A stretch of 63,560 nt of DNA, the filler included, from Chrysochromulina tobinii (lineage: Eukaryota): NCBI GenBank assembly GCA_001275005.1. It is 10 parts of 10 records of this genome, joined end to end, with 100 filler letters (N's around TTAATTAATTAA, not from the genome) between each part and the next. Parts side by side here need not be neighbours in the genome. Positions count along the whole stretch, not along the records: positions 22,084 to 32,648 come from JWZX01000019.1; 9 more parts are not named here. One strand, given 5' to 3'. The stretch's first letter is position 1. Each line of letters starts with the position of its first letter. Below the pieces are notes generated by a model, which saw only the letters and a list, made by a program, of their open reading frames with translations, was not told the origin of the DNA and searched no databases. Both the position numbers and the translations under genes were made by a program. This document shows positions 89 through 60,549 of this stretch, in pieces.

Positions 89-1710
89 GAGTCAATCCGA
101 GTACTCTCCCTCAGCAGGCAAGCAGCGTCTCGACGACACCGGACGGGACGACATCGATGAAGCTGTCCTCAAGGAGCGCGCGGCCAAGCTCGAGGCGAAG
201 GCGGTGGACGCCAAGGCCCGAGCGCAAGCCGCCAGACGAAATATGCTCGCCGATGCGCAGGCAGCCGGCGACGCCTTTGCCGAGCAGCGCCGCATGATTG
301 AAGACCTGGTGAACGACCCGGTCGTCTTTGGGGGACTGGTTGCTTTGCAAGTGGAGCACAACCGATACAGTCTTCCTGGCTCGCCGATGTACGAACGATT
401 CGTAGCGACCAGGGCAGGCAAGCCGCCGCCGCCGTTGCGCATCGTGTTCCATGGCACTGACGACGAGAACATCGAGCCTATCTTGGCAAATGGAATGGAC
501 CCGTCCAGGCGTGGTATGCACGGCCAAGTTCATGGGCCGGGAGAGTACTTTGCGACGTGCGCGCTTACGAGCGTGCGTTTCGCGCTTAGGAACCGACCCG
601 GCCGGCTCACGGGGAGGCTGCTCATCTTTCTTGTGTCGGAGAAGGAGGTTCTGCCCCAGGCCCCTGACGTTGTCGTCGTAAACGACGTGTCGCGCGAGCT
701 GCCTCTGGGCACCGTGACATTTCAAATGGCGGACGCCAAGGTGAGCGAGTTAGATGAGAAGGCCCGAAAGGCGAAGGCCGCAGCTGAGCGCGCGAAGGCC
801 GCAGCTGAGCGCACAAACTCGACGGTGCCCCTGCAGACTCAAGTGCCACCTTCACACACTCAAGTGCCACTTGGCGAGAGCCGCAGCTCCGAGGGCCATC
901 AGGCGTCATCAGGCGTCATCGGGCGTCATCAGGCGTCATCAGGCGAGAGCCGCAGCTCCGAAGAGGCACTGCGACGGGCGCTGGGACGGCGACACGCGCC
1001 TCGGTCGACAGTGACGAACCACAACCACACAGTGACGAACCTCAACCCACTGGGAGGGCGACACGCGCCTCGGTCGACTGTCGTAGCCGTGATGAAGGAG
1101 CTCAAGCGGTTCCATCAAGGCTCAAGGGGCGGCTCGGGGCGCTGTGTTGAGCGCGACGCGACCGATGGCACGGCCGACGACGCCGACGCGGACGACGACT
1201 TTCGTGCCCTTCTCCTCGACGACGCCGACGTGCTCCGCTGGCGCGTGGAGATGCGCCTTCCACCGGACTCGCTGCTCGGGGCACAGCTAGCTGCGCATGC
1301 AGCGCGCTGGGGTGGGGGCGCGGTGGTCGAGCTTGAAGTGCTCTTTGGGGACGACTTTCCCGCGTCGCCGCCCTTTGTGCGTGTCGTCTCGCCGCGCTTC
1401 GCCTTCCACACTGGCCACGTCACCGTGGGCGGCTCGATCTGCATGCAACTCCTCACGACAAGCGGCTGGGACAGCTCCTTCACCGTGGAGGCTGCCCTTG
1501 TGATGGTACGTGATGCCATGCTGAGCGGTCATGGCGCGCTCGACAGCTCGCGTGCTCACTACGGCGCCCAACCCCCTCTCCCCACAGGTACGTGACGCCA
1601 TGCTGAGCGGTCATGGCGCGCTTGACAGCTCGCGTGCTCACGTGCCATATTCAGAGGCAGAGGCAAGGCACGCGTTTCGCCGTGTAGCTAATCAGCACGG
1701 GTGGGTGTGA
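6..1710 (+). CDS. PARP-like (probably mono-) ADP-ribosyltransferase fused to a C-terminal UBE2Q-type E2 domain; intron 1506-1587; 5' end uncertain (first ATG at 87)
   Basis: ART motifs IVFHGT, HGPGEYFA and DVVVVND..ELPLGTVTF. E2 motifs FGDDFPASPPFVRVVSPRF and GHVTVGGSICMQLL (catalytic Cys). Splicing out 1506-1587 (GT..CAG) gives the UBE2Q-like tail VPYSEAEARHAFRRVANQHGWV, with TGA ending at 1710. Confidence 0.85.
874..942 (+). other. Candidate GC-AG exon-echo intron (69 bp, in frame) with (GGCGTCATCA)n body
   Basis: G|GCGAGAGCCGCAGCTCCGA ... CATCAG|GCGAGAGCCGCAGCTCCGA: a 19-bp duplication flanking 10-bp tandem repeats. Confidence 0.5.
1506..1587 (+). other. Exon-echo intron (82 bp)
   Basis: GTACGT...CCCCTCTCCCCACAG. 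Its first 54 nt repeat exon 1588-1641 with 2 mismatches, and it ends in module GTGCTCACTACGGCGCCC..CCCCACAG. Confidence 0.85.
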
Positions 1711-21983: not shown

Positions 21984-22084
21984 NNNNNNNNNNNNNNNNN
22001 NNNNNNNNNNNNNNNNNNNNNNNNNNNTTAATTAATTAANNNNNNNNNNNNNNNNNNNNNNNNNNNNNNNNNNNNNNNNNNNNC

Positions 22085-23979
22085 AGCGATGCACTCGACC
22101 TCAACGACCCTCGCCGCTATCGGCCGCTCTGGAAGTCTGTCGGCGCACTGGACGAGCGCCGCCTCGCCGCCACGCATCGCCAACGCCACGAGCTCCAGGT
22201 CGACGCCGAGGCGGGGCAGACGATTCCGCTCTACCGCACCCACTACTCTTCGCCCGCCTACGTGGCATACTACCTGCTGCACATCTTCCCCGAGCTCACG
22301 TTCCACATCAACAGTGGCAAGTTTGACAAGGAGGCGCGCTCGTTTTCGTCGGTGAATAGGACGTGGCGGAATGTCTCCGAACGTGCCACCGGCGACGTCA
22401 AAGAACTCATCCCCCAATTCTACTCGGACCCCGCCTTCTTGAGAAAGGAGAGGGGCGTCCTGCTGCCTCCTTGGTGCGAGGACGTGGTCCTGCCTCCGTG
22501 GGCTGGCGGCTCCAACATCGAGTTTGTGCGCCAGATGCGCGCCGCGCTCGAGTCCGACTTCGTCTCGGCGCACCTTCACCTCTGGATCGACCTCATCTTT
22601 GGCAGCAAGCAGCAAGGCGCCCCCGCTCTCAAGGCGAACAACCTCTTCGAGAGCTACACATACGAGAGCGCGTTGGAGAGCGGCGAGCTCGACGATGCCG
22701 CCCGCGAGCTCATCCGCGCGTGCGCGACCGAATTCGGCCAGACGCCGCCCCAGCTCTTTGCGCGAGCCCACCCTCCTCGGCGACTTCACGTCAATGGGCT
22801 GCCGCAGCCATGGCGAGCGGCCGAGCCGAGCGCCACGCTCATCCAGGCGAATGCTCGGCGCTGGCTGGGCCGGCGTCACATCGTGGCGACCGCGGTCGAC
22901 TTCTTCTTCAATGAGAAGGCCTTCCGCGGCACGGCGGCGCTTTCCATCGAGGTGCCGCCGGTTGACGTCGTGCTGCGCACCGACTACACCGACGGCTTCT
23001 CCTTCGCCTACTCCAAGCGCACTGCCGACTGGATGCTCGCCTTGGCCGCCGCGACGGAGGCGGCCTCAGATGAGCAGGAGATTTGCACGTTCCTGGAGAG
23101 CTGCTTTCGCAGCGATGACGAACGCAGGTATGCACCATCCGAATGCCATCCGTTCGCGAATGCGCTGCGCGAGTACTGTGGCTTCGTCTCGCAGCTGTTT
23201 GCCCAGAACGGTCGTAGCCCTGCGTCGCGAATGAGTGCGGCTGTGCGCCTCAAGAACCTGTCAAAGGCCGTACAGCTGGGTCTCAAGCGAATGCACGCGA
23301 TAGTTGTGCGGATCCTGCCGCCCATGCTGGAGCCAAGGCGATCGGTGCTGGTGCGCGCATTGGTGCTGGATGAGATCACAACTCGCCTCTTCCGCCCGCT
23401 GATCATGCCTCTCATTCAGAGTGTCCATGGCGCCGACGATGCCGCCTATGCGGACAGCGTCGCCCGCTTTGCCCAGCTGCGCCCACACCACTTGGAGGGC
23501 GTCGTCAACCTGCCGCCGCACTTTTGGCTGGGCAGCAGCGACGCCGACGCGAGTAGTCACGTGCCGTACGCAACGGCGATCAAGGCGCTCTCGCACGTCT
23601 CCGCCACGTACTCAACGCGACGAAAGCTCGCCCTCCTGATGGATGTGCTGCAAGCGATCCAGCACCACGTGTGGAGCTACCACGGCATCGCCTCCCCAGA
23701 GGACCAAGCCAACGACAGGCGGCTCCGGCTCGCGGCCGACGAGCTGATCTCGGTGGTCGCGTACGTCCTCTCTCAGGCGCGGCCGGTGCTGCACCTCGGC
23801 TCGGAACTCGCATTCATCGAGCGCTTTGCCGACGACGGGTGCCTGCTTGGCGAGCATGGCTACTGCCTCGCGACGGTCCAGGCCGCCTCTGGGTTCCTCC
23901 GCACGCTGACCTGGCCCCAGATTGAGCTTGGCTTGCAGAATGTGGCGCTTCGCAAAGGAGCGGAGGCGGCGGCGGCAGA

Positions 23980-24012
<33 letters not shown>

Positions 24013-24586
24013 CCACAATGCCCAGCTGTTGCACGGCGACACTGGCGCAGCCGTAGCCGCATCAATAGCCGATGCCAGCAGCTCAGGATCGAACACGCCA
24101 AAACCACCGCGAACATTCGGGCCGAGATACTCTGGAATTGTGGAGCAAATCCGGGCCCGCAAGGCGAACGGAGGCACCCCAGCTGGAAGTAGCTCAGAAT
24201 CGAACGCGCCAAAATCACCGGCACCGCGAACGCTCGGGCCGAAATACTCTGCAATAGTCGAGCAAGTCCGGGCCCGCAAGGCGAATGGAGGCACCTCGGC
24301 TGGAAGTAGCTCAGAGTCGAACGCGCCAAAACCACCGCGACCGCTCGGGCCGAGATACTCTGAAGTCGCCGAGAGAATCCGGGCCCGCAAGGCGAACGGA
24401 GGCACCCCGGCTGATGCAGCGATGAACGCGGACAACACCATGAGACGCATACGCCGCGAGCAGCGGCGGGTCGTGGGAGATCCTCCAGGAGATCATTCGG
24501 GAGATCCTCTGGGAGATCCTCCAGGAGATCCTCTGGGAGATCCTCTGGGAGATCCTCTGGGAGATCCACCGGGAGATCGGATTTGA
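22085..24586 (+). CDS. BEACH domain + IQ motif + VPS9 (Rab5 GEF) domain protein, 5'-truncated
   Basis: BEACH: LDLNDPRRYR, THYSSPAYV, GDVKELIPQFY, DVVLPPWA, ALESDFVSAHLHLWIDLIFG, FGQTPPQLF. IQ: LIQANARRWLGRR. VPS9: LAADELISVVAYVL..SELAFIERF..GEHGYCLATV. Confidence 0.88.
24077..24415 (+). repeat. Three ~114-120 bp coding tandem repeats (SSSESNAPKPPRxxGPRYS..IRARKANGGT), followed by 12-bp GGAGATCCTCYG repeats at 24476-24578
   Basis: Visible in both DNA and translation. Confidence 0.9.
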
Positions 24587-24904
24587 GTACTTCGGTGTGT
24601 CTGGTGTAGCGACGGCCTTGCTTGTGGAGTCTCTGTTTGAGTTTCGGTAGGGAGGGGTCTCTCTCGCTTGCTGTGTGCAGCGACGGATGGGGGGGCGCTT
24701 GACGCTTGAGACATCTTGACGGATGACGCTCCCTGCAGCCTGCACCGCACCCTCGCTCCACGCCATCCCCATCGGCCATGTGTATTCGCGATTGTTCCGT
24801 TACCAAGTGAAACTCGAATCAGTCAAATACAGTCTCAGTCATTAGTATAGCCGAGGCCGACACGCATATCGTCATGCCACATCCGGACTCTCACTCTGGG
24901 GCGT

Positions 24905-26701
24905 TCATGTCTTCCTGGTGCTTCGCGCTTCCCCACGGCTGCTATTCGAGTATTCGTCCTCTTCCCAATCCGAAGGCGGATCCTCAAGCGCGCCGCCGCT
25001 GTCCCGCGACTGCTCGTCATCGTCGTCAAAGGCCTGCATCCAGTTCTTGGGCTGGGCGCCATACTGGGCGCCCGCGCGGCTGTCGTGCGCCTGGGAGGTG
25101 TGCGGCCTCGTTGGTGGCGCGCCCTCCTCGAGATCCTCAAACGCGGTGGTCCAGTCGGCCGCGGCGGCCGCTGCAGCGTCCTTCACAGCGTCCTTCACAG
25201 CGTCCTCGTGGGCGCCCTTCGAGCGCGGGGGCATCGCCCCCGGCAGTTGCCCATAGTGCGGCGAGAAGGTCGCATCCCACAGCTCCGCGGCCATCAACGC
25301 CTCCTCGGCACTCGGCGGCGCCTTGAGAGCCAGCGCCATCGCTTCCACAGCAGCCTGCTCGGGAGTGAGCGCCGTGCCGGGCGCACCGGACTGGGCGTGC
25401 AGGCGCGCACGCGGGGTGGACACCGACATGGGCGCCGCCGTGGGCGTTGCCCGCCCGCCGCCACCACCACCGCCCGCCGACTTGCGACTGCGCGGACGCT
25501 GTCGGCGAAGCGTCCCGCAGAGACATCCTGCACAGCTGAGGGCGAAGGCGAGGATGACGAGGAGAGGCCCGATGAGCTCCATCGCCAGCCGCCGCCCCGA
25601 TCGGATCGCCTCGAGTGCGCCGCCACCCCACGTGAACAGCAGCAGCAGCGCCGTCAGCGTCACGAGCCAGAGCCCTCGACGCGACTGGCGCCACCACGCC
25701 TGAAGCTTATCCGCCGGATGGGCATTCGCTGGCAGGGAGCGGTCCGCGCCACCGCAGTAGATGGACGCTGTGAGTGCGAGCTCGAGGAGGAGCCACACGT
25801 GCATCGGCAGCAGCGCCAAGCGCCAGCTCACGTGCAGGCCACCGTCCCCGAGCAGTGGAGGCAGCACAGTGAGCTGCGTCGTACTGAGCAGCAGCCATGC
25901 GGCGTCACGCGCCCAGCCGCCACTCGGGCTGTCGAGGCGGGTTGGGCGCGCGGCGGGCTGGCACGTGGCCGCGAGCAGCTGGCGCTCGCGCAGCGCCTCT
26001 GGCAGCCCCGACAGCGCCACTCCCCGCTGCACGAAAAGCGGTGCGAAGACATGCAACCAGGCGAGTGGCATCGCGTCAGGCCGAGTGTAACGGTCACGCT
26101 CGGCGTCGGGGCTCGTCTGATGGAGCCGATAGCACAAGAGCACGAGGAAGCTCAGCTGGAGCGCCGCCGTCGGAACGAGCTCACGCACCGCTTCGCGCGC
26201 CGCTGCGGGCGTGTCCGCGCCGGCGCCGATCACGGCCGCCATCGCCGTCGCCAGCGGCAGCGCCAGCCACAGCGGAAGGAACAGCAGCCACCACGGCACC
26301 GCGTCCAAGTAGCCGTCGTAGTGGAGCGCGGCGAGCACGAGGGCGAGGCCGAGCAGCACCACAAGCAGCGCGCCGCCCGCCACGAGCCCCGTTGCGAAGT
26401 AGACCCTCGGAGGCGAGGAGGTCGGCTCAACGGCGCCGACCGTGCGTGCAAAGCGATGAGCCTCCTCGTAGAGATGCAGCACGTCAAGCCCGAACGCATC
26501 GTAAACCTCTCGCCTTCGAGGGTCGCTCAAAATATCGTACGCCTCCGTGACCGCTGCAAACTGCGCCTTTGTGTCCTGGGCTGATTTGTCGGGGTGCAGC
26601 TGCACGGCGAGGCGGCGGTAGGCGCGCCGGACATCGTCGAGCGTCGCGTCCACCTCGCAGCCAAGCGTCCGATACAGGTCGTGCGGCGTGTAAGGCTCCA
26701 T
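24905..26701 (-). CDS. DnaJ (J-domain) multi-pass membrane protein with TMEM185/FAM11-like WxxxFxPLW helices
   Basis: DLYRTLGC..VRRAYRRLAVQLHPDK..EAYDILSDPRRREVYD, then PWWLLFLPLW, WLHVFAPLF, SWRLALLPMHVW. Confidence 0.85.
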   Translation of the reverse strand: MEPYTPHDLYRTLGCEVDATLDDVRRAYRRLAVQLHPDKSAQDTKAQFAAVTEAYDILSDPRRREVYDAFGLDVLHLYEEAHRFARTVGAVEPTSSPPRVYFATGLVAGGALLVVLLGLALVLAALHYDGYLDAVPWWLLFLPLWLALPLATAMAAVIGAGADTPAAAREAVRELVPTAALQLSFLVLLCYRLHQTSPDAERDRYTRPDAMPLAWLHVFAPLFVQRGVALSGLPEALRERQLLAATCQPAARPTRLDSPSGGWARDAAWLLLSTTQLTVLPPLLGDGGLHVSWRLALLPMHVWLLLELALTASIYCGGADRSLPANAHPADKLQAWWRQSRRGLWLVTLTALLLLFTWGGGALEAIRSGRRLAMELIGPLLVILAFALSCAGCLCGTLRRQRPRSRKSAGGGGGGGRATPTAAPMSVSTPRARLHAQSGAPGTALTPEQAAVEAMALALKAPPSAEEALMAAELWDATFSPHYGQLPGAMPPRSKGAHEDAVKDAVKDAAAAAAADWTTAFEDLEEGAPPTRPHTSQAHDSRAGAQYGAQPKNWMQAFDDDDEQSRDSGGALEDPPSDWEEDEYSNSSRGEARSTRKT

Positions 26702-26885
26702 AGGATGGCCCCCGCTCAGGCACGCTCAGGCGCACTCTGGTGGGCGCCGTGATCCAGAAAAACAGGTCGCCATTTTACCTTCGCGCCAATACAGCGCGTT
26801 TTGTCAACATCTCACAGATGTTCACAGCATCCGCCCCGGGGCCAATTTGTAAGTTGTCTGCTCTGGCCTCTGCAGAGTTCCGCCC

Positions 26886-29800
26886 CTACGCATGGTACGA
26901 GCGTTCGAGGTGCATGCCCGCGCTCGGGCCGGCGACCACATGCGCGAGGGTCATCTTGGTGTCCGCGCCCTCCCTCCCCGCCGCCCGGAGCGCCTCGACC
27001 GCCTCACCGAGCAGCTGGCGCTCAAACTCGAGCAGCCGCCGCGCCACCTCCGCTTCCGTGGAGCCATGCTTCATCATCATCGTGCTGAGCGCCGTACCGA
27101 GCGCGCCCCCTCCCATCCCCTCGGCCCCCTCCGCGACGGCCGCGTCGTACCGAGCGCTCAGAACGGCGCCCTCGGCGATGGCGTCGTCGTGGCGCCGCTT
27201 GTGGGCCTCGAGCAGCGCGATCATGTGCTCCCTCGCGAGCGCCTCATCTCGGATGGGCCGCTGCAGGTTGAACTCGCGTCTCCATGCGCCGAGTAGGGGG
27301 CCATCAACGCCCTCGCCCTCTCCATTGCAGCCATCAGCCCCCTCGCCCTCCGCCGTCTTGAGCGCCGTCTTGGGCGCCGTATTGGGCACTTGTACGATGG
27401 CCGCCGCCTCGGCCACCTCGTCCTCGCGCACGAGCATCGCCCGCACCGCCGCGAACAGCGGGCATGCCTCGAGCCGATGATCGGGCACCCACCTGTGGGG
27501 AGTGAAGGGCGTCGTGGTGAGCACTTGCATGCAGCAGAACAGCGGGCATGCCTCGAGCGGTTGATCGGGCACCCACCACGCATGCATCGCTTCGTCACAT
27601 CCGATGGCTGCCTGGGCGGCGGCAAGCTCGATGCGCCACGTGTCAATGGCGGCGGTCGGCGTGGCCTTGCCCTCGCCGCCCCCACCGCCCCCGCCGCCCT
27701 CGCCGCCGCCGTCGCCACCCCATCGGCCCAGCGCGATCGCGAGGAGCTCGTGCGGGGTCACGGGCACCTGTGGGGAGGGGAGCGCGTCGTGGTGAGCACT
27801 TGCATGCGAGGAGCTCGTGCGGGGTCACGGGCACCTGTGGGGAGGGGAGCGCGTCGTGGTGAGCACTTGCATGCGCGCACCTCGGCGGTGTGAAGCACAC
27901 CGCCGGGCGTCGTGGTGAGCACTTGCATGCGCGCACCTCGGCGGTGTGCAGCACCGACGTCGCGTCAAAGAAGCCATAGCGCTCGAAGAAGTCGAGATAA
28001 TCGCCCTCGTCCACCGAGATCGAGATTGCATCTCCCGCCGAGAGCGTGAATTCCGCATGTAACGCCACGCACGTCGCGTCGGCGCCAAGGCGTAAGGAGG
28101 CCACCGGCCCAACCTGATGAGGAAGGCAATCATAGGTCATCATAGGCAATCAGAGGCAATCAAGGTGAGTGGTTCACAGGAGGCCACCGGCCCAACCGAG
28201 GCATGCGCGGCGAGGTCGATGAGCGGGCAGAGGGCGAGGCCGTCGAGGCCCTCCACGCGGCGTGCACGTGTCTGCGTGAGAAGCGCCGCCCAACGGAAAC
28301 GAGCTTCGTCCCAGTAGACAATCGAGAGGTTCAAAGCTGACAGCACAGCCAGTCGCTCCGCCTCCACCCGTCGCCGCCACGCGCGCGCGCGGTGCCACGC
28401 GACGCAGTGCCGCAGGAGGCGCGCCGCGGCGCTGCCCTCCTCCCAAGCGGCCAACATGGCTGATTCGAGCCGCTCGGGCGGCGCCAAGCGCGCAAAGTAC
28501 GCCGCGCGAGCGTCGGGCAGGCAAGCTGGGGCTTCTTGGGCGCGTAGGCATGTGTTGGCGGATGGGCTGCTCGCGTCGTGTCGAGCGGATGGGCTGCTCG
28601 CGTCGTGTCGAGCGGATGTGTCAAGCAGCCGCAGCAGCGCCACGAACAAGCGCCCATCCTCACGCACGGCAACGCTCGCCTCGTCGCTCGCCTTCTCCAA
28701 GCCGCCCAACGCCTGCACGCGCGCCACCACCGCCGCCCACTCGGGCTCCGGCACCTCGGATGCCAAGACGCACGCCGCGAGGGGGATGGAGAGTAGCGTG
28801 TCGCCGCACGCACAGCCGGCGCCGGCATGCAGTGAGGCGCCTCGGGCAGAGTTGGGGCGTACCTGTGGGGAGTGGAGGGCGTCGCGGTGAGCACTTGCAT
28901 GCAGCCGCGGGCAGCGTTGGGGCGTACCTCGAGGGTGTGGGAAGTGGCCAACGTCGCCAGCGCGGCCGTCGCATGCGCGGCGCGGTCATCGGCCTCGAGT
29001 ACAGCCCACATGCGTACCCTCCGATGCGCCACCCACGCCGCCATCGCCTCTCGCCGCACCACCGCCTCGGCCACCATCCCATGCTGTCTGAGGGCCGCGT
29101 TCAACGCCGACGCCTCCCGCGCGAGCTCCGGCGTCTCGAGCCAGCACAGCCTCGCGCACCTGTGGGGAGGGGGGGAGGGCGTCGTGGTGAGCACTTGCAT
29201 GCAAGCAGTCTCGAGCCAGCACAGCCTAGCGCACCGAGAGCGCAGCACGCGACCGAGCTCCGCGAGCTCCGCGTGGTACGCGAAGAGGGCGGCGGCCCCG
29301 GCCGCGGAGAGCGCTGTGCTGGGCACGGGCCGCGAGTCGAGCCACGCACGCAGCCACGCGGGATCGAGGAAGACGACCGCGTCCGCGCCGTGGTGAGCGT
29401 CCGCGCCGTGGTGAGCGTCCGCGCCGTGGTGAGCGTCAGCGCCGTGGTGAGCGTCCGCGCCGTGGTGAGCGTCAGCGCCGTGGTGAGCGTCAGCGCTGTG
29501 ATGAGCATCAGCGCCGGTCGCTCCGCCGCCACGGCCGCTGTCGGCGTCGCCGCTGCCAGCGTCTCCGCCGCTGCCAGCATCGCCGCTGTTGTCAGCCCCT
29601 ACGCTGGTCGTCGGCGTGGTCGTCGACGTGGTCGTCAGCGTGGGTGGCGTCGCGCGCCATCCCGGGCGCCATCGGAGGTCGAGCCGCGTGTCGGCACTGT
29701 CGAGGGTGGCGTTGGCGGGCACGGTGGGCGTCGTCGGCGGGCTCGGCATTGGCAGCCGTGCCGCGAGCGCCGGGCGCGCGCCTGTGGGGAGGGCGAGGGC

Positions 29801-30929
29801 GCCGTGGTGAGCACTTGCATGCGCGCACCTCGGCGGTGTGCAGCACCGCCGGGCGTCGTGCTGAGCACTTGCATGCGCGCACCTCGGAGCATCTCATGCA
29901 GCCCCATGGCGAAGGGGAAGTTGTGATCGACCAGCTGTGCCCATAAGCTTATGGAGCCTGAGCGCGGCTGAGCGCATAGCGCGGCTGGGGCCATGAAGTT
30001 CTGCGAGACGGCGGAGGTCCACTCGAGATTGACGACGGCGTGATGCCAGCCGGCTGGGATGAAGACCATGTCGCCCGCCCCCTGCACGCACCTGTGGGGA
30101 GGCGAGGGCGCCGTGGTGAGCACTTGCATGCGCGCACCTCACGAAGACCATGTCGCCCGGCCCCTTGCACGCACTCGAGCATCGTGAGCTTGCCCGCCAC
30201 CGCGCTCCGCTGCAGCCGCGGATGCTCATCCAAGAACCAGCAAACGGGCAGCTGATGCTTTCCTTGGGCAAAGTGCTCGAGACCGTGCACGGCCATGTCG
30301 GTCTCGGGCGCGAGCATGCACCAGCGCTTGCGCCCGGCCAGGCACACGTTCCACGCGCTCGTGCACAGCGGGTCCACGTGCAGGAAGGTGCCGCTGCGCG
30401 CGCCGCCAAAGAAGCAGTAGCGCGCGCGCTTCGAGCCTGGGATCTCCGCGAGGAGGTCGTCGGCGAAGAAGGAGGGCGGCGCGAAGTCGTCGAGCAGCGC
30501 CGCGCGCTCGCCCTGGAAGCTGCGCTCCACCAGGTAGTATGGCGAGTCGGCCGCGTTGTTCGCTGCGTACTCCACGTACTCGCGCAGCGGCAGCCGCACA
30601 TCATCAGCAAGGTCCATCTCAAAGTCGCCATAGTGCGCCACGAGCGCCTCGGCGCTCGACCACCGCTCGGCTGCGCGCCAGCCCCACGCCTTGGCGGCGC
30701 CGCGCATCACAAAGGGCGTCGTACGCGCGCTCAGGCTCGCCGCGAGAGGCTGCTCCGCCGCATCCACGCGGAGCTCCTCCATCGTCGTCGCCGCCGGTGG
30801 CGCAGCACCCAGGCTATCGACAACGCGGACGGCCTCCTCGCCACGCTCACGAATGTTGTGCAGAGTCGAGCTGCCGAGCGGCTCCAGCCAGCGTCGGGCC
30901 ATCGGCGAGGTTGGCTCCGAGAACTCCAT
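26886..30929 (-). CDS. JMJD6-like JmjC oxygenase fused to a degenerate Rubisco-LSMT-type SET domain; 8 exons: 30929-30175, 30091-29883, 29781-29235, 29159-28928, 28862-28197, 28113-27937, 27767-27577, 27492-26886
   Basis: Exons sum to 3384 nt (1127 aa + stop) with consistent phases. JmjC: GTFLHVDPLCTSAWN, GRKRW, FIPAGWHHAVVNLE. SET-like: RGASLHA..GDTLLSIP, LCPLIDLAAH, AGDAISIS..FFERYGF. Confidence 0.85.
27493..27576 (-). other. Exon-echo intron (84 bp, in frame)
   Basis: 40-bp echo GTGGGTGCCCGATCA.C.GCTCGAGGCATGCCCGCTGTTC plus module ..CTCCCCACAG. Confidence 0.85.
27768..27936 (-). other. Compound intron: two abutting units 27936-27835 and 27834-27768 joined by AG/GT, three module copies
   Basis: Removal gives HTAE|VPVTPHELLAIA. 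A 67-bp tandem duplication spans the acceptor. Confidence 0.85.
28114..28196 (-). other. Exon-echo intron of a second family (83 bp; GATTGCC-repeat body, CCTCATCAG acceptor)
   Basis: TCG|GTTGGGCCGGTGGCCTCCT..GATTGCCTCTGATTGCCTATGATGACCTATGATTGCCTTCCTCATCAG|GTTGGGCCGGTGGCCTCCT. Confidence 0.88.
28863..28927 (-). other. Exon-echo intron (65 bp)
   Basis: GAG|GTACGCCCCAACGCTGCCCGCGGC..module..CCCCACAG|GTACGCCCCAACTCTGCCCGAGGC. Removal fixes the frame into the SET N-terminus. Confidence 0.9.
29160..29234 (-). other. Exon-echo intron (75 bp, in frame)
   Basis: 27-bp echo GTGCGC(T/G)AGGCTGTGCTGGCTCGAGAC plus module. The unspliced ORF reads CARLCWLET-ACMQVLTTTPSPPPHR-CARLCWLET. Confidence 0.85.
29379..29515 (-). 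repeat. 18-bp coding minisatellite (GADAHH)x7
   Basis: Unit GCTCACCACGGCGC(G/T)GAC on the minus strand. Confidence 0.92.
29782..29882 (-). other. Module-family intron (101 bp), near-copy of intron 27835-27936
   Basis: CCGAG|GTGCGCGCATGCAAGTGCTC..CCCCACAG|GC. Removal joins the JmjC frame to the MPSPPT frame. Confidence 0.88.
30092..30174 (-). other. Exon-echo intron (83 bp)
   Basis: GA|GTGCGTGCAAGGGGCCGGGCGACATGGTCTTC..GCATGCAAGTGCTCACCACGG..CCCCACAG|GTGCGTGCAGGGGGCGGGCGACATGGTCTTC. Removal restores LECVQGAGDMVFIPAGWHH. Confidence 0.9.
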
Positions 30930-31152
30930 GTTCACTATGAATACACAGCGACGCGTCGGTATCTCCGGAAAGAGAAAGAGCGGCGAGACCCATGTATGAA
31001 CTCGGGAGGGAGCGCGCCCGCCGACATGGGCGGTGGACCCCCAGATGTCCGCGCGGAACTAGGCGTGAATTTGCGAGGTTGGCGCGAAACTTCGCCTGTT
31101 CAACACAACGCGCTTCGAAGCACGATTTCTTTTTGTGAAGGTGCGTGCAAAA

Positions 31153-32648
31153 ATGCATAACCTCTTGCTGTCTGCAGCGAGCGGCTACCCGGATAGAATG
31201 GACTGCTCGCAGGCCTTGACTGTGGGCAACACCATCATGTTTGACATATCCAAAAGCGATTCCCTGAGCACGGCCTCCTTTGTCGGCAAGGCGTGCGGCG
31301 GCACGTTCACCGCCGGCGAGACGCTCACCGCGACAACAAACGCGCCAGGCCAACACCTTATGGAGCTCACTGGCGGCGCGACGTTCACTGGCGGCAAGTG
31401 CGACGGGTTGCGCATCGACAATGCTAACTCCGCGACCGTCTCGACGACGGGCGCCGGCGCCGGCGCCACGATCGCCCTCTTCCTATTCGATACCTTCTCC
31501 ATCGCGCCCAAGTTTGAGACGGGCGGCTCGTCGGCCAAGGTCGAGCGTCATGTGGCGCCGGAGCCCTTGGCGGACACTTCCGCCTCGCCGAGCCCTAATG
31601 CGTCGACGATCGTGGGCACGGAGCTCACCCACAGCCTCGACGACGGACCCGCGTTCGTCGTCTGCATCTCGGCCGCCAACTTGCCCCTGGCGGGCCGCCT
31701 CACGGCGTGCATCATCAACGACGGCTCATGCCCGAACACGATATCGCGCCCGTACCTGTCCACCGCGGTCGGCGGCACTGGCCTCTACCGCATCCCGGCT
31801 GGCAACTCCACCATCGACCCGTGCGCCTTCTACCGCGCTGCCGCGAGCACGCGCGCCGGGCGTCGTGTCTGGCGTGACTCGCGTCGTGTCGGGCGTGACT
31901 CGATGACGGCCGACGACGGGCTGCGCAAGGGCGCGCGCCAGGTCTTTGAGGTCGCGCTCGAGGAACCCTTCATCGAGGGCAAGGTCGGGGACGCCGACGT
32001 TAAGTACGAGTACTCGTTCCCGTACGGCCAGACGAATGTGAATGAGGATACGGCGGGCGGCGACCCCGTCGAGGAAGCGGCAAAAAGGGGCGGGGTGCCT
32101 CTGCGGTGGGTGGAGCGCTTCGACGGCGCACTCGTGCTGCTCGGGCTCGGGTTGCTCGGGTTCATCTTGGTTGCAGGTTGCTCGGAGCAGGATCGGTGCA
32201 GACCAAACAAGCGCTCCGCGAGTCGGTCGAAAACCAATCGCTCCTACCGTAACAAGTGGTTCGAACTGGCCTTGCTCGCGCACTTGGTCCCGCGCGTCGC
32301 CGACGCACAGAGCAGCGCCTACTTCACCGTCGCCTCCGGCCCATGCACCGTCGATCCGAGCGCCCCGAACTGCATTCGCTCGCCCAACTTTCCGTCGAAT
32401 TACGGCGTCAACGAGGCGTGCTCCATCACGTCGACCGCGCTCGCCATTGGAAGGCCCCTGACAGCGACCTCCTTTGTTACGGAGGCTGGTTACGACTTTC
32501 TCTACATGCCTAGCCACCCGTCAGGGACGTTGACGGCCTTCTCAGGATCGACCGGACCTTCCAATTTCATCTTGGGCCCGGGGACGATCCAATGGTCTTC
32601 AGACAACAGAGCCACCAGTACCGGCTGGCGAGTGTGCGTGCCGCTTGC
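31153..32648 (+). CDS. Mosaic hypothetical protein ending in a CUB-like domain, 3'-truncated
   Basis: CIRSPNFPSNYGVNEACSI..FVTEAGYDFL..IQWSSD..TGWRVC is CUB-like. Upstream segments look unrelated to each other and include internal hydrophobic stretches. Confidence 0.5.
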
Positions 32649-59420: not shown

Positions 59421-60549
59421 GGAGCACTGTGCGGTCTCGCGTGTGTCGTACCGGGCATCTTGTGTGCATCATGTAGGTTTCCGTACTGAAGTGTGCGTCA
59501 TACGTCGTCCACTCTTTAACTTAGGATCGCACACCACTCTATAAGAGACACACCATTGATAACAGGCAAGAGAATGTGTTTTGGAGCTCGAATTGTGGAG
59601 CTGTGTGGCCTAATGGTTGACAGGTCGATATTCGAGGCGAAGCCGGATTTCGATGCACATCTCCAAAGATCGCGAGACAGCACATAGCTGGAGGGCCATG
59701 GATCGAGTCTAGGGACTATATGGAGTCATACAACACAGAAAATCACGCCATCCCAAGTCACTCTGCATGGCCCTAGTACCGAAATGCGACCAAAACGCGA
59801 CCTCACAGGCCGTACTTGGGGTCACACTGTGACATCTGAGTGGCGACAGTGACTTGAGATGGTGTGGTTCTCTGTGCTGTATGACTCCATATAGTCCCTA
59901 GACTCGATCTATGGCCCTCCAGCTATGTGCTGTCTCGCGATCTTTGGAGATGTGCATCGAAATTGACCTTGGACGATAAGTAGGTCGACATTCGAGCCGA
60001 GGCCGGATTTCGATGCACATCTCCAAAGATCGCGAGACAGCACATAGCTGGAGGGCCCTAGATCGAGTCTAGGGACTATATGGAGTCATACAACACAGAT
60101 AATCACGCCATCACAAGTCGCTTTGCATGGCCCTAGTACCGAAATGCGACCAAAACGCGACCTCACAGGCCGTTCTCGGGGTCACAATGTGACATCTGAG
60201 TGGCGACAGTGACTTGAGATGGCGTGATTTTCTGTCCTGTACGACTCCATATAGTCCCTAGACTCGATCTATGGCCCTCCAGCTATGTGCTGTCTCGCGA
60301 TCTTTGGAGATGTGCATCGAAATCCGGCTTCGCCTCGAATATCGACCTGTCAACCATTTGGCCACACAGCTCCACAATTCGAGCTCCAAAACACGTTCTC
60401 TCGCCTGTTATCGATGGTGTGTCTCTTATAGAGTGGTGTGCGATCCTAAGTTAAAGAGTGGACGACGTATGACGCACACTTCAGTACGGAAACCTACATG
60501 ATGCACACAAGATGCCCGGTACGACACATGCGAGTATGCACAGTGCTCC
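59421..60549. mobile_element. Fold-back / long-TIR non-autonomous element with an internal tandem dimer of hairpins
   Basis: ~340-bp imperfect terminal inverted repeats (GGAGCACTGTG...CACAGTGCTCC). Internal 360-bp direct repeat, each unit with ~115-bp inverted arms. No coding capacity. Confidence 0.85.

Follow-up and report, generated by a model that had tools for sequence, protein, structure and literature searches.

How does a gene come to be interrupted by introns whose first part repeats the start of the exon that follows them? This question is raised by a JMJD6-like gene of the alga Chrysochromulina tobinii, carried on a stretch of 63,560 nucleotides (nt) from assembly GCA_001275005.1, here called the window, which joins ten parts of the genome through spacers of N's; all coordinates are positions along the whole window and the gene lies on the part at 22084-32648 (10,565 nt, JWZX01000019.1). 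A first-pass annotation had described seven interruptions which, once removed, left an open reading frame (ORF) of 3384 nt with JmjC motifs, and all of this was reproduced: after in silico removal the ORF runs from an ATG at 30929 to a stop at 26886, it matches the Pfam Cupin_8/JmjC domain and JMJD6 chains. The SET domain also claimed for it was detected neither in the exon pieces of the gene nor in its homolog P0006. The eight intron units that make up the interruptions lie exactly where they had been placed, on the minus strand, starting with GT and ending with CAG, and the near-perfect copies of the start of the next exon (hereafter echoes) were recovered at the 5' end of six of them, followed by an acceptor part (hereafter the module). 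This anatomy is directly visible and is as follows.

26886-30929, minus strand: JMJD6-like JmjC gene, 1127 amino acids (aa) once seven introns are removed; four full-length homologs align across all seven sites.
30092-30174, minus strand: echo intron 1, 83 nt; echo of about 32 nt (one mismatch and one extra base), then a module beginning GAG-GTGCGC; frameshift if retained.
29782-29882, minus strand: intron 2, 101 nt; lacks a long echo; copy of composite intron 6a (27835-27936).
29160-29234, minus strand: echo intron 3, 75 nt; 27-nt echo (one mismatch) and module; in frame, no stop.
28863-28927, minus strand: echo intron 4, 65 nt; 20-nt echo (one mismatch) and module; exact join in RNA.
28114-28196, minus strand: echo intron 5, 83 nt; 19-nt echo (no mismatch) and a second acceptor type, TGATTGCC decamers ending CCTCATCAG.
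27835-27936, minus strand: composite intron 6a, 102 nt; made of a core, a copied end of the upstream exon, another core and a tail.
27768-27834, minus strand: twin echo unit 6b, 67 nt; the module and 29 nt of exon, duplicated perfectly in tandem (29-nt echo, no mismatch).
27493-27576, minus strand: echo intron 7, 84 nt; 40-nt echo (two mismatches) and module; in frame.
27262-27308, minus strand: empty site in the window, echo intron in other alleles, from the allele comparison.

The unit at 27768-27834 does carry its echo and is corrected here to a plain 67-nt tandem duplication. Retention of any of five introns would break the frame, while the 75- and 84-nt introns are in frame and stop-free. 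The units have the features of U2 introns (GT..AG ends, a branch-like motif and a pyrimidine tract), and the earlier reading of CTCAC, tract and CAG as a U2 acceptor fits, CTCAC probably being the branch point as judged from its position. No insertion was found at the seven intron sites in the homologs P0002, P0003, P0005 and P0006 (964-1175 aa; the four full-length ones among seven aligned), and these homologs are likely to be intron-free there because the gene calls of this collection read through introns. The P0002 contig is 13.8 kb long and the other homolog clusters have members on contigs of 7-33 kb.

The pattern extends well beyond this gene. An exact 20-mer scan for the module core returned at least 136 loci, and all locus counts given here are among the matches listed; with three loci dropped as duplicate or chance matches, loci and window together held 213 cores, of which 153 remained after removal of 21 at edges, 17 duplicates and 22 lacking an acceptor. 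The share of matches carrying a copy of the downstream exon, the count of which had been proposed as a check, was well above controls, with an ungapped echo at 95 of the 153 unique module acceptors compared to 6 of 1508 mismatched controls and, when gaps were allowed, at 100 of 129 module introns with a pyrimidine tail (control 2%). Echo length ranges continuously from 13 to 55 nt and the echo begins at exon base 1 in 85 of the 100. Seventy-nine echoes begin with GT or GC, 35 of them being perfect, and these have G at -1 in 63 cases (28% at 740 control GT sites), a purine at +3 in 74 and G at +5 in 59. As the exon copy shows the same donor profile, the targets would already have been cryptic donors before insertion; no mismatch excess that would indicate donor improvement after insertion was found at +3 to +6 (18/316 vs 30/686, p 0.43). 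Apparent exon, not another intron, precedes 68 of these 79 introns (same-tail twins having already been removed as duplicates). Sixteen of 47 framed echo introns are a multiple of three in length and stop-free, so gene models may often retain such introns.

Presence or absence of the introns differs between alleles. A protein search with the twin region gave three proteins, two of which are alleles of the gene, and cluster members gave two more; P0052 lacks the units at 27768 and 27493, P0054 lacks that at 27768 and has that at 27493, and the echo intron at 28114-28196 is also in four other alleles. At 27308, where the window and the second-assembly locus L050 have a single empty site, an echo intron is present as one unit in P0052 and as two tandem units in P0054. 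The tail of this unit reads as the 28863 and 27493 modules alone (2 of 153, both from this gene), its acceptor half matches an intron 185 nt away, and a contig of the RNA set X15 links the 27493 module to 27306 (joint 27306-27492). The alleles of this gene differ at three sites, and gain of introns appears to be active now. A second case is the gene pair at L049 and L066, which from a motif we take to be ornithine-decarboxylase-like and which shows 18 differences over 157 nt of exon. Two echo introns of L049 sit at G|GT sites; at these places L066 is single-copy and reads GGC or GGA. An intron common to both has a near-perfect echo in L066 that is overwritten in L049, suggesting that echoes are renewable in place and hence that the identity of an echo is predicted not to date its intron. 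The comparison of orthologs and strains proposed in the first-pass annotation thus revealed intron presence and absence which, with the four distant homologs free of insertions, points to an active system.

Four low-depth sets of RNA contigs, one of which (X15) represents a strain differing by a few percent, were aligned to the gene, and joins at the predicted junctions were present at four of the seven sites. X17 has an exact join over 28863-28927 with no other letters, and X15 has joins over 28114-28196, 27493-27576 and 27768-27936 (27936 to exon). Those at 28863-28927 and 28114-28196 are good evidence of splicing, while an allele without the intron may be the source of the X15 join at 27493 and the 169-nt skip at 27768-27936 may be the 102-nt intron in a strain without the twin. 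No join was seen in the four low-depth sets for the three 5'-most introns (30092-30174, 29782-29882 and 29160-29234), which is not evidence of their retention. Scarless, recently gained and spliced introns, with the donor supplied by a long and variable target duplication, are supported much as had been suggested.

That the units are artefacts of assembly is scarcely credible. The repeats are GC-rich, and an assembler could have collapsed the perfect 67-nt twin where it is absent, and likewise 27493 in one contig; the extra unit at 27308 is not explicable in this way, loci L050 and L051 of a second assembly match the window at 100% identity across 27113-28330 and 28783-30531, there are RNA joins, independent alleles read through the same units and the pattern recurs at more than 100 loci. 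In 14 DNA runs, which may stem from the window's own culture, 96% of words were present.

The idea of one portable element whose 3' end is fixed was not supported in that form. Echo introns comprise 67 with the core and 26 with other acceptors (the decamer type, other endings and some plain repeats), and because several unrelated acceptor types build them they are not one element. Moreover, 60 of 193 cores break off before reaching a pyrimidine-tract acceptor (approximately 8 being misfiled true acceptors), about a quarter of all cores leave before the AG, 39 of these 60 (including six of the misfiled) return to sequence just upstream compared to a control of 5%, and in the mirror-image cases L128, L027 and L132 donor and core are carried and the AG is taken from the duplication. 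Only a core of approximately 24 nt is conserved across modules; both flanks vary, the upstream consensus being graded, and so end-to-end similarity as expected of an introner element is lacking, although there are many similar, recently gained introns at unrelated sites, as in introners in the broad sense. The duplications, continuous from 13 to 55 nt, are not the short fixed-length target-site duplication (TSD) of an introner of miniature inverted-repeat transposable element (MITE) type, and the module has no terminal inverted repeat (TIR), stable hairpin or poly(A) (fold z -1.5 to +1.3). Variable TSDs and 5' truncation are shared with short interspersed nuclear elements (SINEs) and other elements lacking long terminal repeats (non-LTR), but a constant 3' end bearing poly(A) or a simple-repeat tail is absent, and the terminal direct repeats and end hairpin of Replitrons were not found in the module. 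Echo introns are, then, a real, spliced, polymorphic and genome-wide class that behaves like an acceptor-carrying introner and falls outside the MITE-introner, SINE and Replitron classes.

Module donors seem, from the sequences compared, often to be local and in the same gene. At least 9 nt of 5' flank are common to 7 of 63 same-locus module pairs, compared to 7 of 8577 other pairs (six adjacent pairs left out); such sharing was reached in 0 of 5000 permutations and holds without the window too. Within the window a donor chain leads from 27936 to 29882 to 30174: the copy at 29782-29882 includes the piece of exon end belonging to site 27936, and the 30174 unit has a module that matches the 3' half of intron 29782-29882. 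At 27936 the allele P0055 has a simpler intron form, the tail peptide of which fits the 29882 module alone among the 153. Twins make up 7 of 40 close core pairs, two of these seven being separated by real exon, and the window holds 25 short tandem duplications compared to 1-4 in shuffles. A test for clumping of modules was discarded, as the scan may return pieces of contigs, which alone would yield clumping. A screen for paralogs among the loci was dominated by module matches.

We lean towards microhomology-guided template switching, which would make these introns as tandem duplications that incorporate half of a nearby intron. DNA synthesis would copy 13-55 nt of exon, jump into an existing and often nearby intron upstream of its core, copy the branch-point core and tail, and then go back to the start of the stretch already copied, so that half an intron ends up as filler inside a tandem duplication; the filler varies at both ends. 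Selection would likely keep, in exons, those duplications that start at a cryptic G|GT donor and have filler ending in AG, so that the mRNA would be unchanged. Each product would be a new donor, and its own repeat would promote further slips into twins, nested copies and renewed echoes, so that introns would multiply with no enzyme encoded by an element. The anatomy, the RNA joins at four of seven sites, the allelic differences, the local sharing of modules and the variable ends are observed; we infer the switching itself, the part played by selection and DNA (or unspliced RNA) as template. Whether the system as a whole is self-propagating and transposon-free, any intron seeding new ones by lending its branch-point half, mostly within genes, we judge to be an even call. 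Junction overlaps occur where the donor is identifiable (CCGAG before the GT, common to target and donor at 29882; CTGCA, common to exon and donor at 27308; and GTGCTCAC at 1506, in a second gene of the window), and exon and core overlap by 8-9 nt at 1506 and at L107. The donor junction matches the real target over approximately 4 nt compared to 0.8 at a random exon position, a difference already implied by the donor consensus and so not independent evidence.

Several observations weigh against switching from local donors. Sister pairs showed no excess of exon-start sharing or re-entry microhomology (3.1 vs 2.8 nt in 12 putative pairs, p 0.38), an overlap of echo and core is visible in just 6 of 79 introns, most others having a linker from no known donor, and the G at -1 (63 of 79) is equally explained by donor selection. 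The 24-nt core is more constant than generic slippage suggests, though the sample was drawn with that core. Same-locus tail similarity becomes marginal without the window (256/5000), and the sister modules L004/L119 and L026/L111 lie on different contigs, so copying is not solely local.

A possible but rather less likely route is that intron RNA, either as pre-mRNA or as an excised intron, is copied at a nicked site by a reverse transcriptase (RT), through target-primed reverse transcription (TPRT) or through template switching of the RT, leaving a 5'-truncated insert with a long target duplication. The variable 5' boundary, the graded upstream consensus and the 85 of 100 echoes in register with the AG agree with this; same-gene donors suit a transcript acting in cis, copying from unspliced RNA would yield identical products, and template switching by RT is a proposed intron route (PMC3443670). 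Yet many cores end elsewhere than at AG, the mirror-image cases do not fit, the 29882 junction holds donor exon sequence, poly(A) is absent and a weak motif screen of the sampled loci and window found no RT-type motif. Copying of an excised lariat fits worse because the ends vary and the 29882 junction uses donor exon sequence that a lariat lacks. Of the two routes suggested at the outset, a TPRT-like insertion accordingly fits worse and template switching better.

It is improbable that the core is a tiny non-autonomous transposon moved by an HUH (Replitron- or Helitron-like) or other enzyme with fuzzy ends and variable duplications. Its core is well conserved, Replitron-1 of Chlamydomonas has a fixed end, an end with parental flank and variable TSDs, and a Replitron protein is reported from one C. 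tobinii locus (PMC10288648), but terminal direct or inverted repeats and a stable hairpin are missing, both ends vary, unrelated acceptor types leave the same footprint and donors are local. Very doubtful, finally, is the view that the introns are old and the echoes solely the work of later conversion or in-place duplication of the exon start. The twin at 27768-27834 is a plain tandem duplication, and the echo of the intron common to L066 and L049 matches at all but one of 30 positions, despite differences at 13 of 52 third positions (P 0.01-0.05), showing that renewal occurs; against this stand the empty single-copy sites at 27308 and two in L066, the four homologs without insertions and the 68 of 79 echo introns preceded by apparent exon. 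Homogenisation of old introns, named in the first-pass annotation as a reading that would overturn its own, is therefore wrong for the origin of the introns and partly right for the age of the echoes.

The introners of Symbiodinium, Polarella (classes 4/5 and 6/8/10) and Aureococcus likewise import an acceptor, take the donor from duplicated target, leave the mRNA unchanged and have many copies per genome. The TSD of such acceptor-carrying introners has a fixed length of 4 or 8 nt, and the elements of Symbiodinium carry TIRs (10.1101/2020.10.14.339549; 10.1101/2022.06.06.494994), unlike C. tobinii with its 13-55-nt variable duplication, no TIR, variable ends, several acceptor types and often local donors. 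One intron of a potato gene for RNA-dependent RNA polymerase (RdRp) was born by duplication across an intron-exon boundary (PMC4974935), and its exon copy with a cryptic donor, joined to the 3' part of the parent intron (compare the AGGT model of Rogers), is the structure of the twin at 27768-27834; the potato case is, however, a single event beside its parent, whereas 68 of 79 sampled echo introns of C. tobinii lie away from a parent, with modules from 0.2-2 kb or further, and the pattern is genome-wide and polymorphic. New introns of Daphnia pulex arise at staggered double-strand breaks with repeats of 4-12 bp and mostly unknown filler sources (PMC4202315). They resemble ours in their presence or absence within populations, direct repeats of adjacent exon and secondary duplications within young introns, and differ in that the C. 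tobinii repeats measure 13-55 nt and have a filler that can be recognised as half an intron. Replitron-1 is similar in having one end fixed and the other fuzzy with parental flank, as well as a TSD of variable length, but it is 0.9-3.6 kb long with terminal direct repeats and a transposase, and is not presented as an intron maker in the available text (PMC10288648).

We found no description of the echo-intron pattern in the full-text literature searched, subscription journals mostly lying outside its coverage (reviews on the topic are PMC3443670, PMC11282704 and PMC8469720). The accessible portion of a 2025 screen gives C. tobinii 0 introner families (PMC12130899), and that of the genome paper mentions introns once (PMC4580454). 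C. tobinii was among the input genomes of another study, which describes other families in metagenome-assembled genomes (MAGs) of marine Chrysochromulina in its available part; echo introns may overlap with those MAG families (PMC9860276). Where most new introns come from is not known, and mass gain has been ascribed to transposons in recent surveys; yet here, in a cultured alga with a public genome scored as free of introner families, intron gain is apparently under way. As target and donor can both be read and donor-recipient chains traced inside one gene, the mechanism is testable. If the reading is true, the system would escape introner screens that require end-to-end similarity, and repeat-based screens would undercount intron gain.

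Four further features of the window bear module-related or duplicated sequence.

29379-29516, minus strand: coding 18-nt repeat, (ADAHHG)n; 14 nt of the core of the module are part of the unit, which is present in six exact copies.
1506-1587, plus strand: echo intron in a second gene; 54-nt echo running into the core through the shared GTGCTCAC.
874-942, plus strand: candidate GC-donor echo intron, unverified; 19-nt echo and decamer repeats ending CATCAG; in frame.
981-1078, plus strand: duplication without intron ends; 29-nt duplication around a 40-nt filler, in frame and coding.

The repeat at 29379-29516 likely represents module sequence captured in frame, its match to the core having a chance expectation of 1e-4 by composition, and in the four full-length homologs HH pairs number three at most and the His-rich (ADAHHG)n repeat is absent. 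Deletion of the unit at 1506-1587 extends the ORF beyond the unit's stop. The duplication at 981-1078 is, to judge from its letters, the same duplication-plus-filler footprint with no intron; its filler resembles the start of the second acceptor type.

Other observations concern modules and duplications elsewhere. A protein call of the P0053 cluster runs uninterrupted across three or more in-frame module introns, and does so in six alleles. Tandem arrays of the core with 25-35 nt of other sequence (period 45-57) occur at L006, L043, L079, L084, L088 and L090, those of L079 and L084 having an identical unit in common. L057 and L125 differ by a 42-nt polymorphic insertion consisting of the last ~10 nt of a module plus a target duplication, and a core nearby is antisense to a gene carrying a decamer-type intron. 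A 94-nt whole-intron tandem duplication distinguishes L025 from L061, being present in one assembly and absent from the other. L137 (4495-4554) is a phage-like contig, with an ORF that is presumably terminase-like, ending in a full module with acceptor; this end is likely chimeric, and L137 was set aside together with L138, a chance match, these being the single matches in the viral and prokaryote scans.

The window also holds tandem arrays of 117 nt (three copies, 24080-24413) and 360 nt (two copies, 59622-60323), and a DnaJ gene neighbours the JMJD6-like gene on the part at 22084-32648. Rfam gave 0 matches in the window and 0 at 30900-31200, the region in which an element at 30976-31047 lies just upstream of the JMJD6-like gene. 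This element has one copy within the window and shows very high RNA-contig depth with many divergent copies in all four RNA runs.

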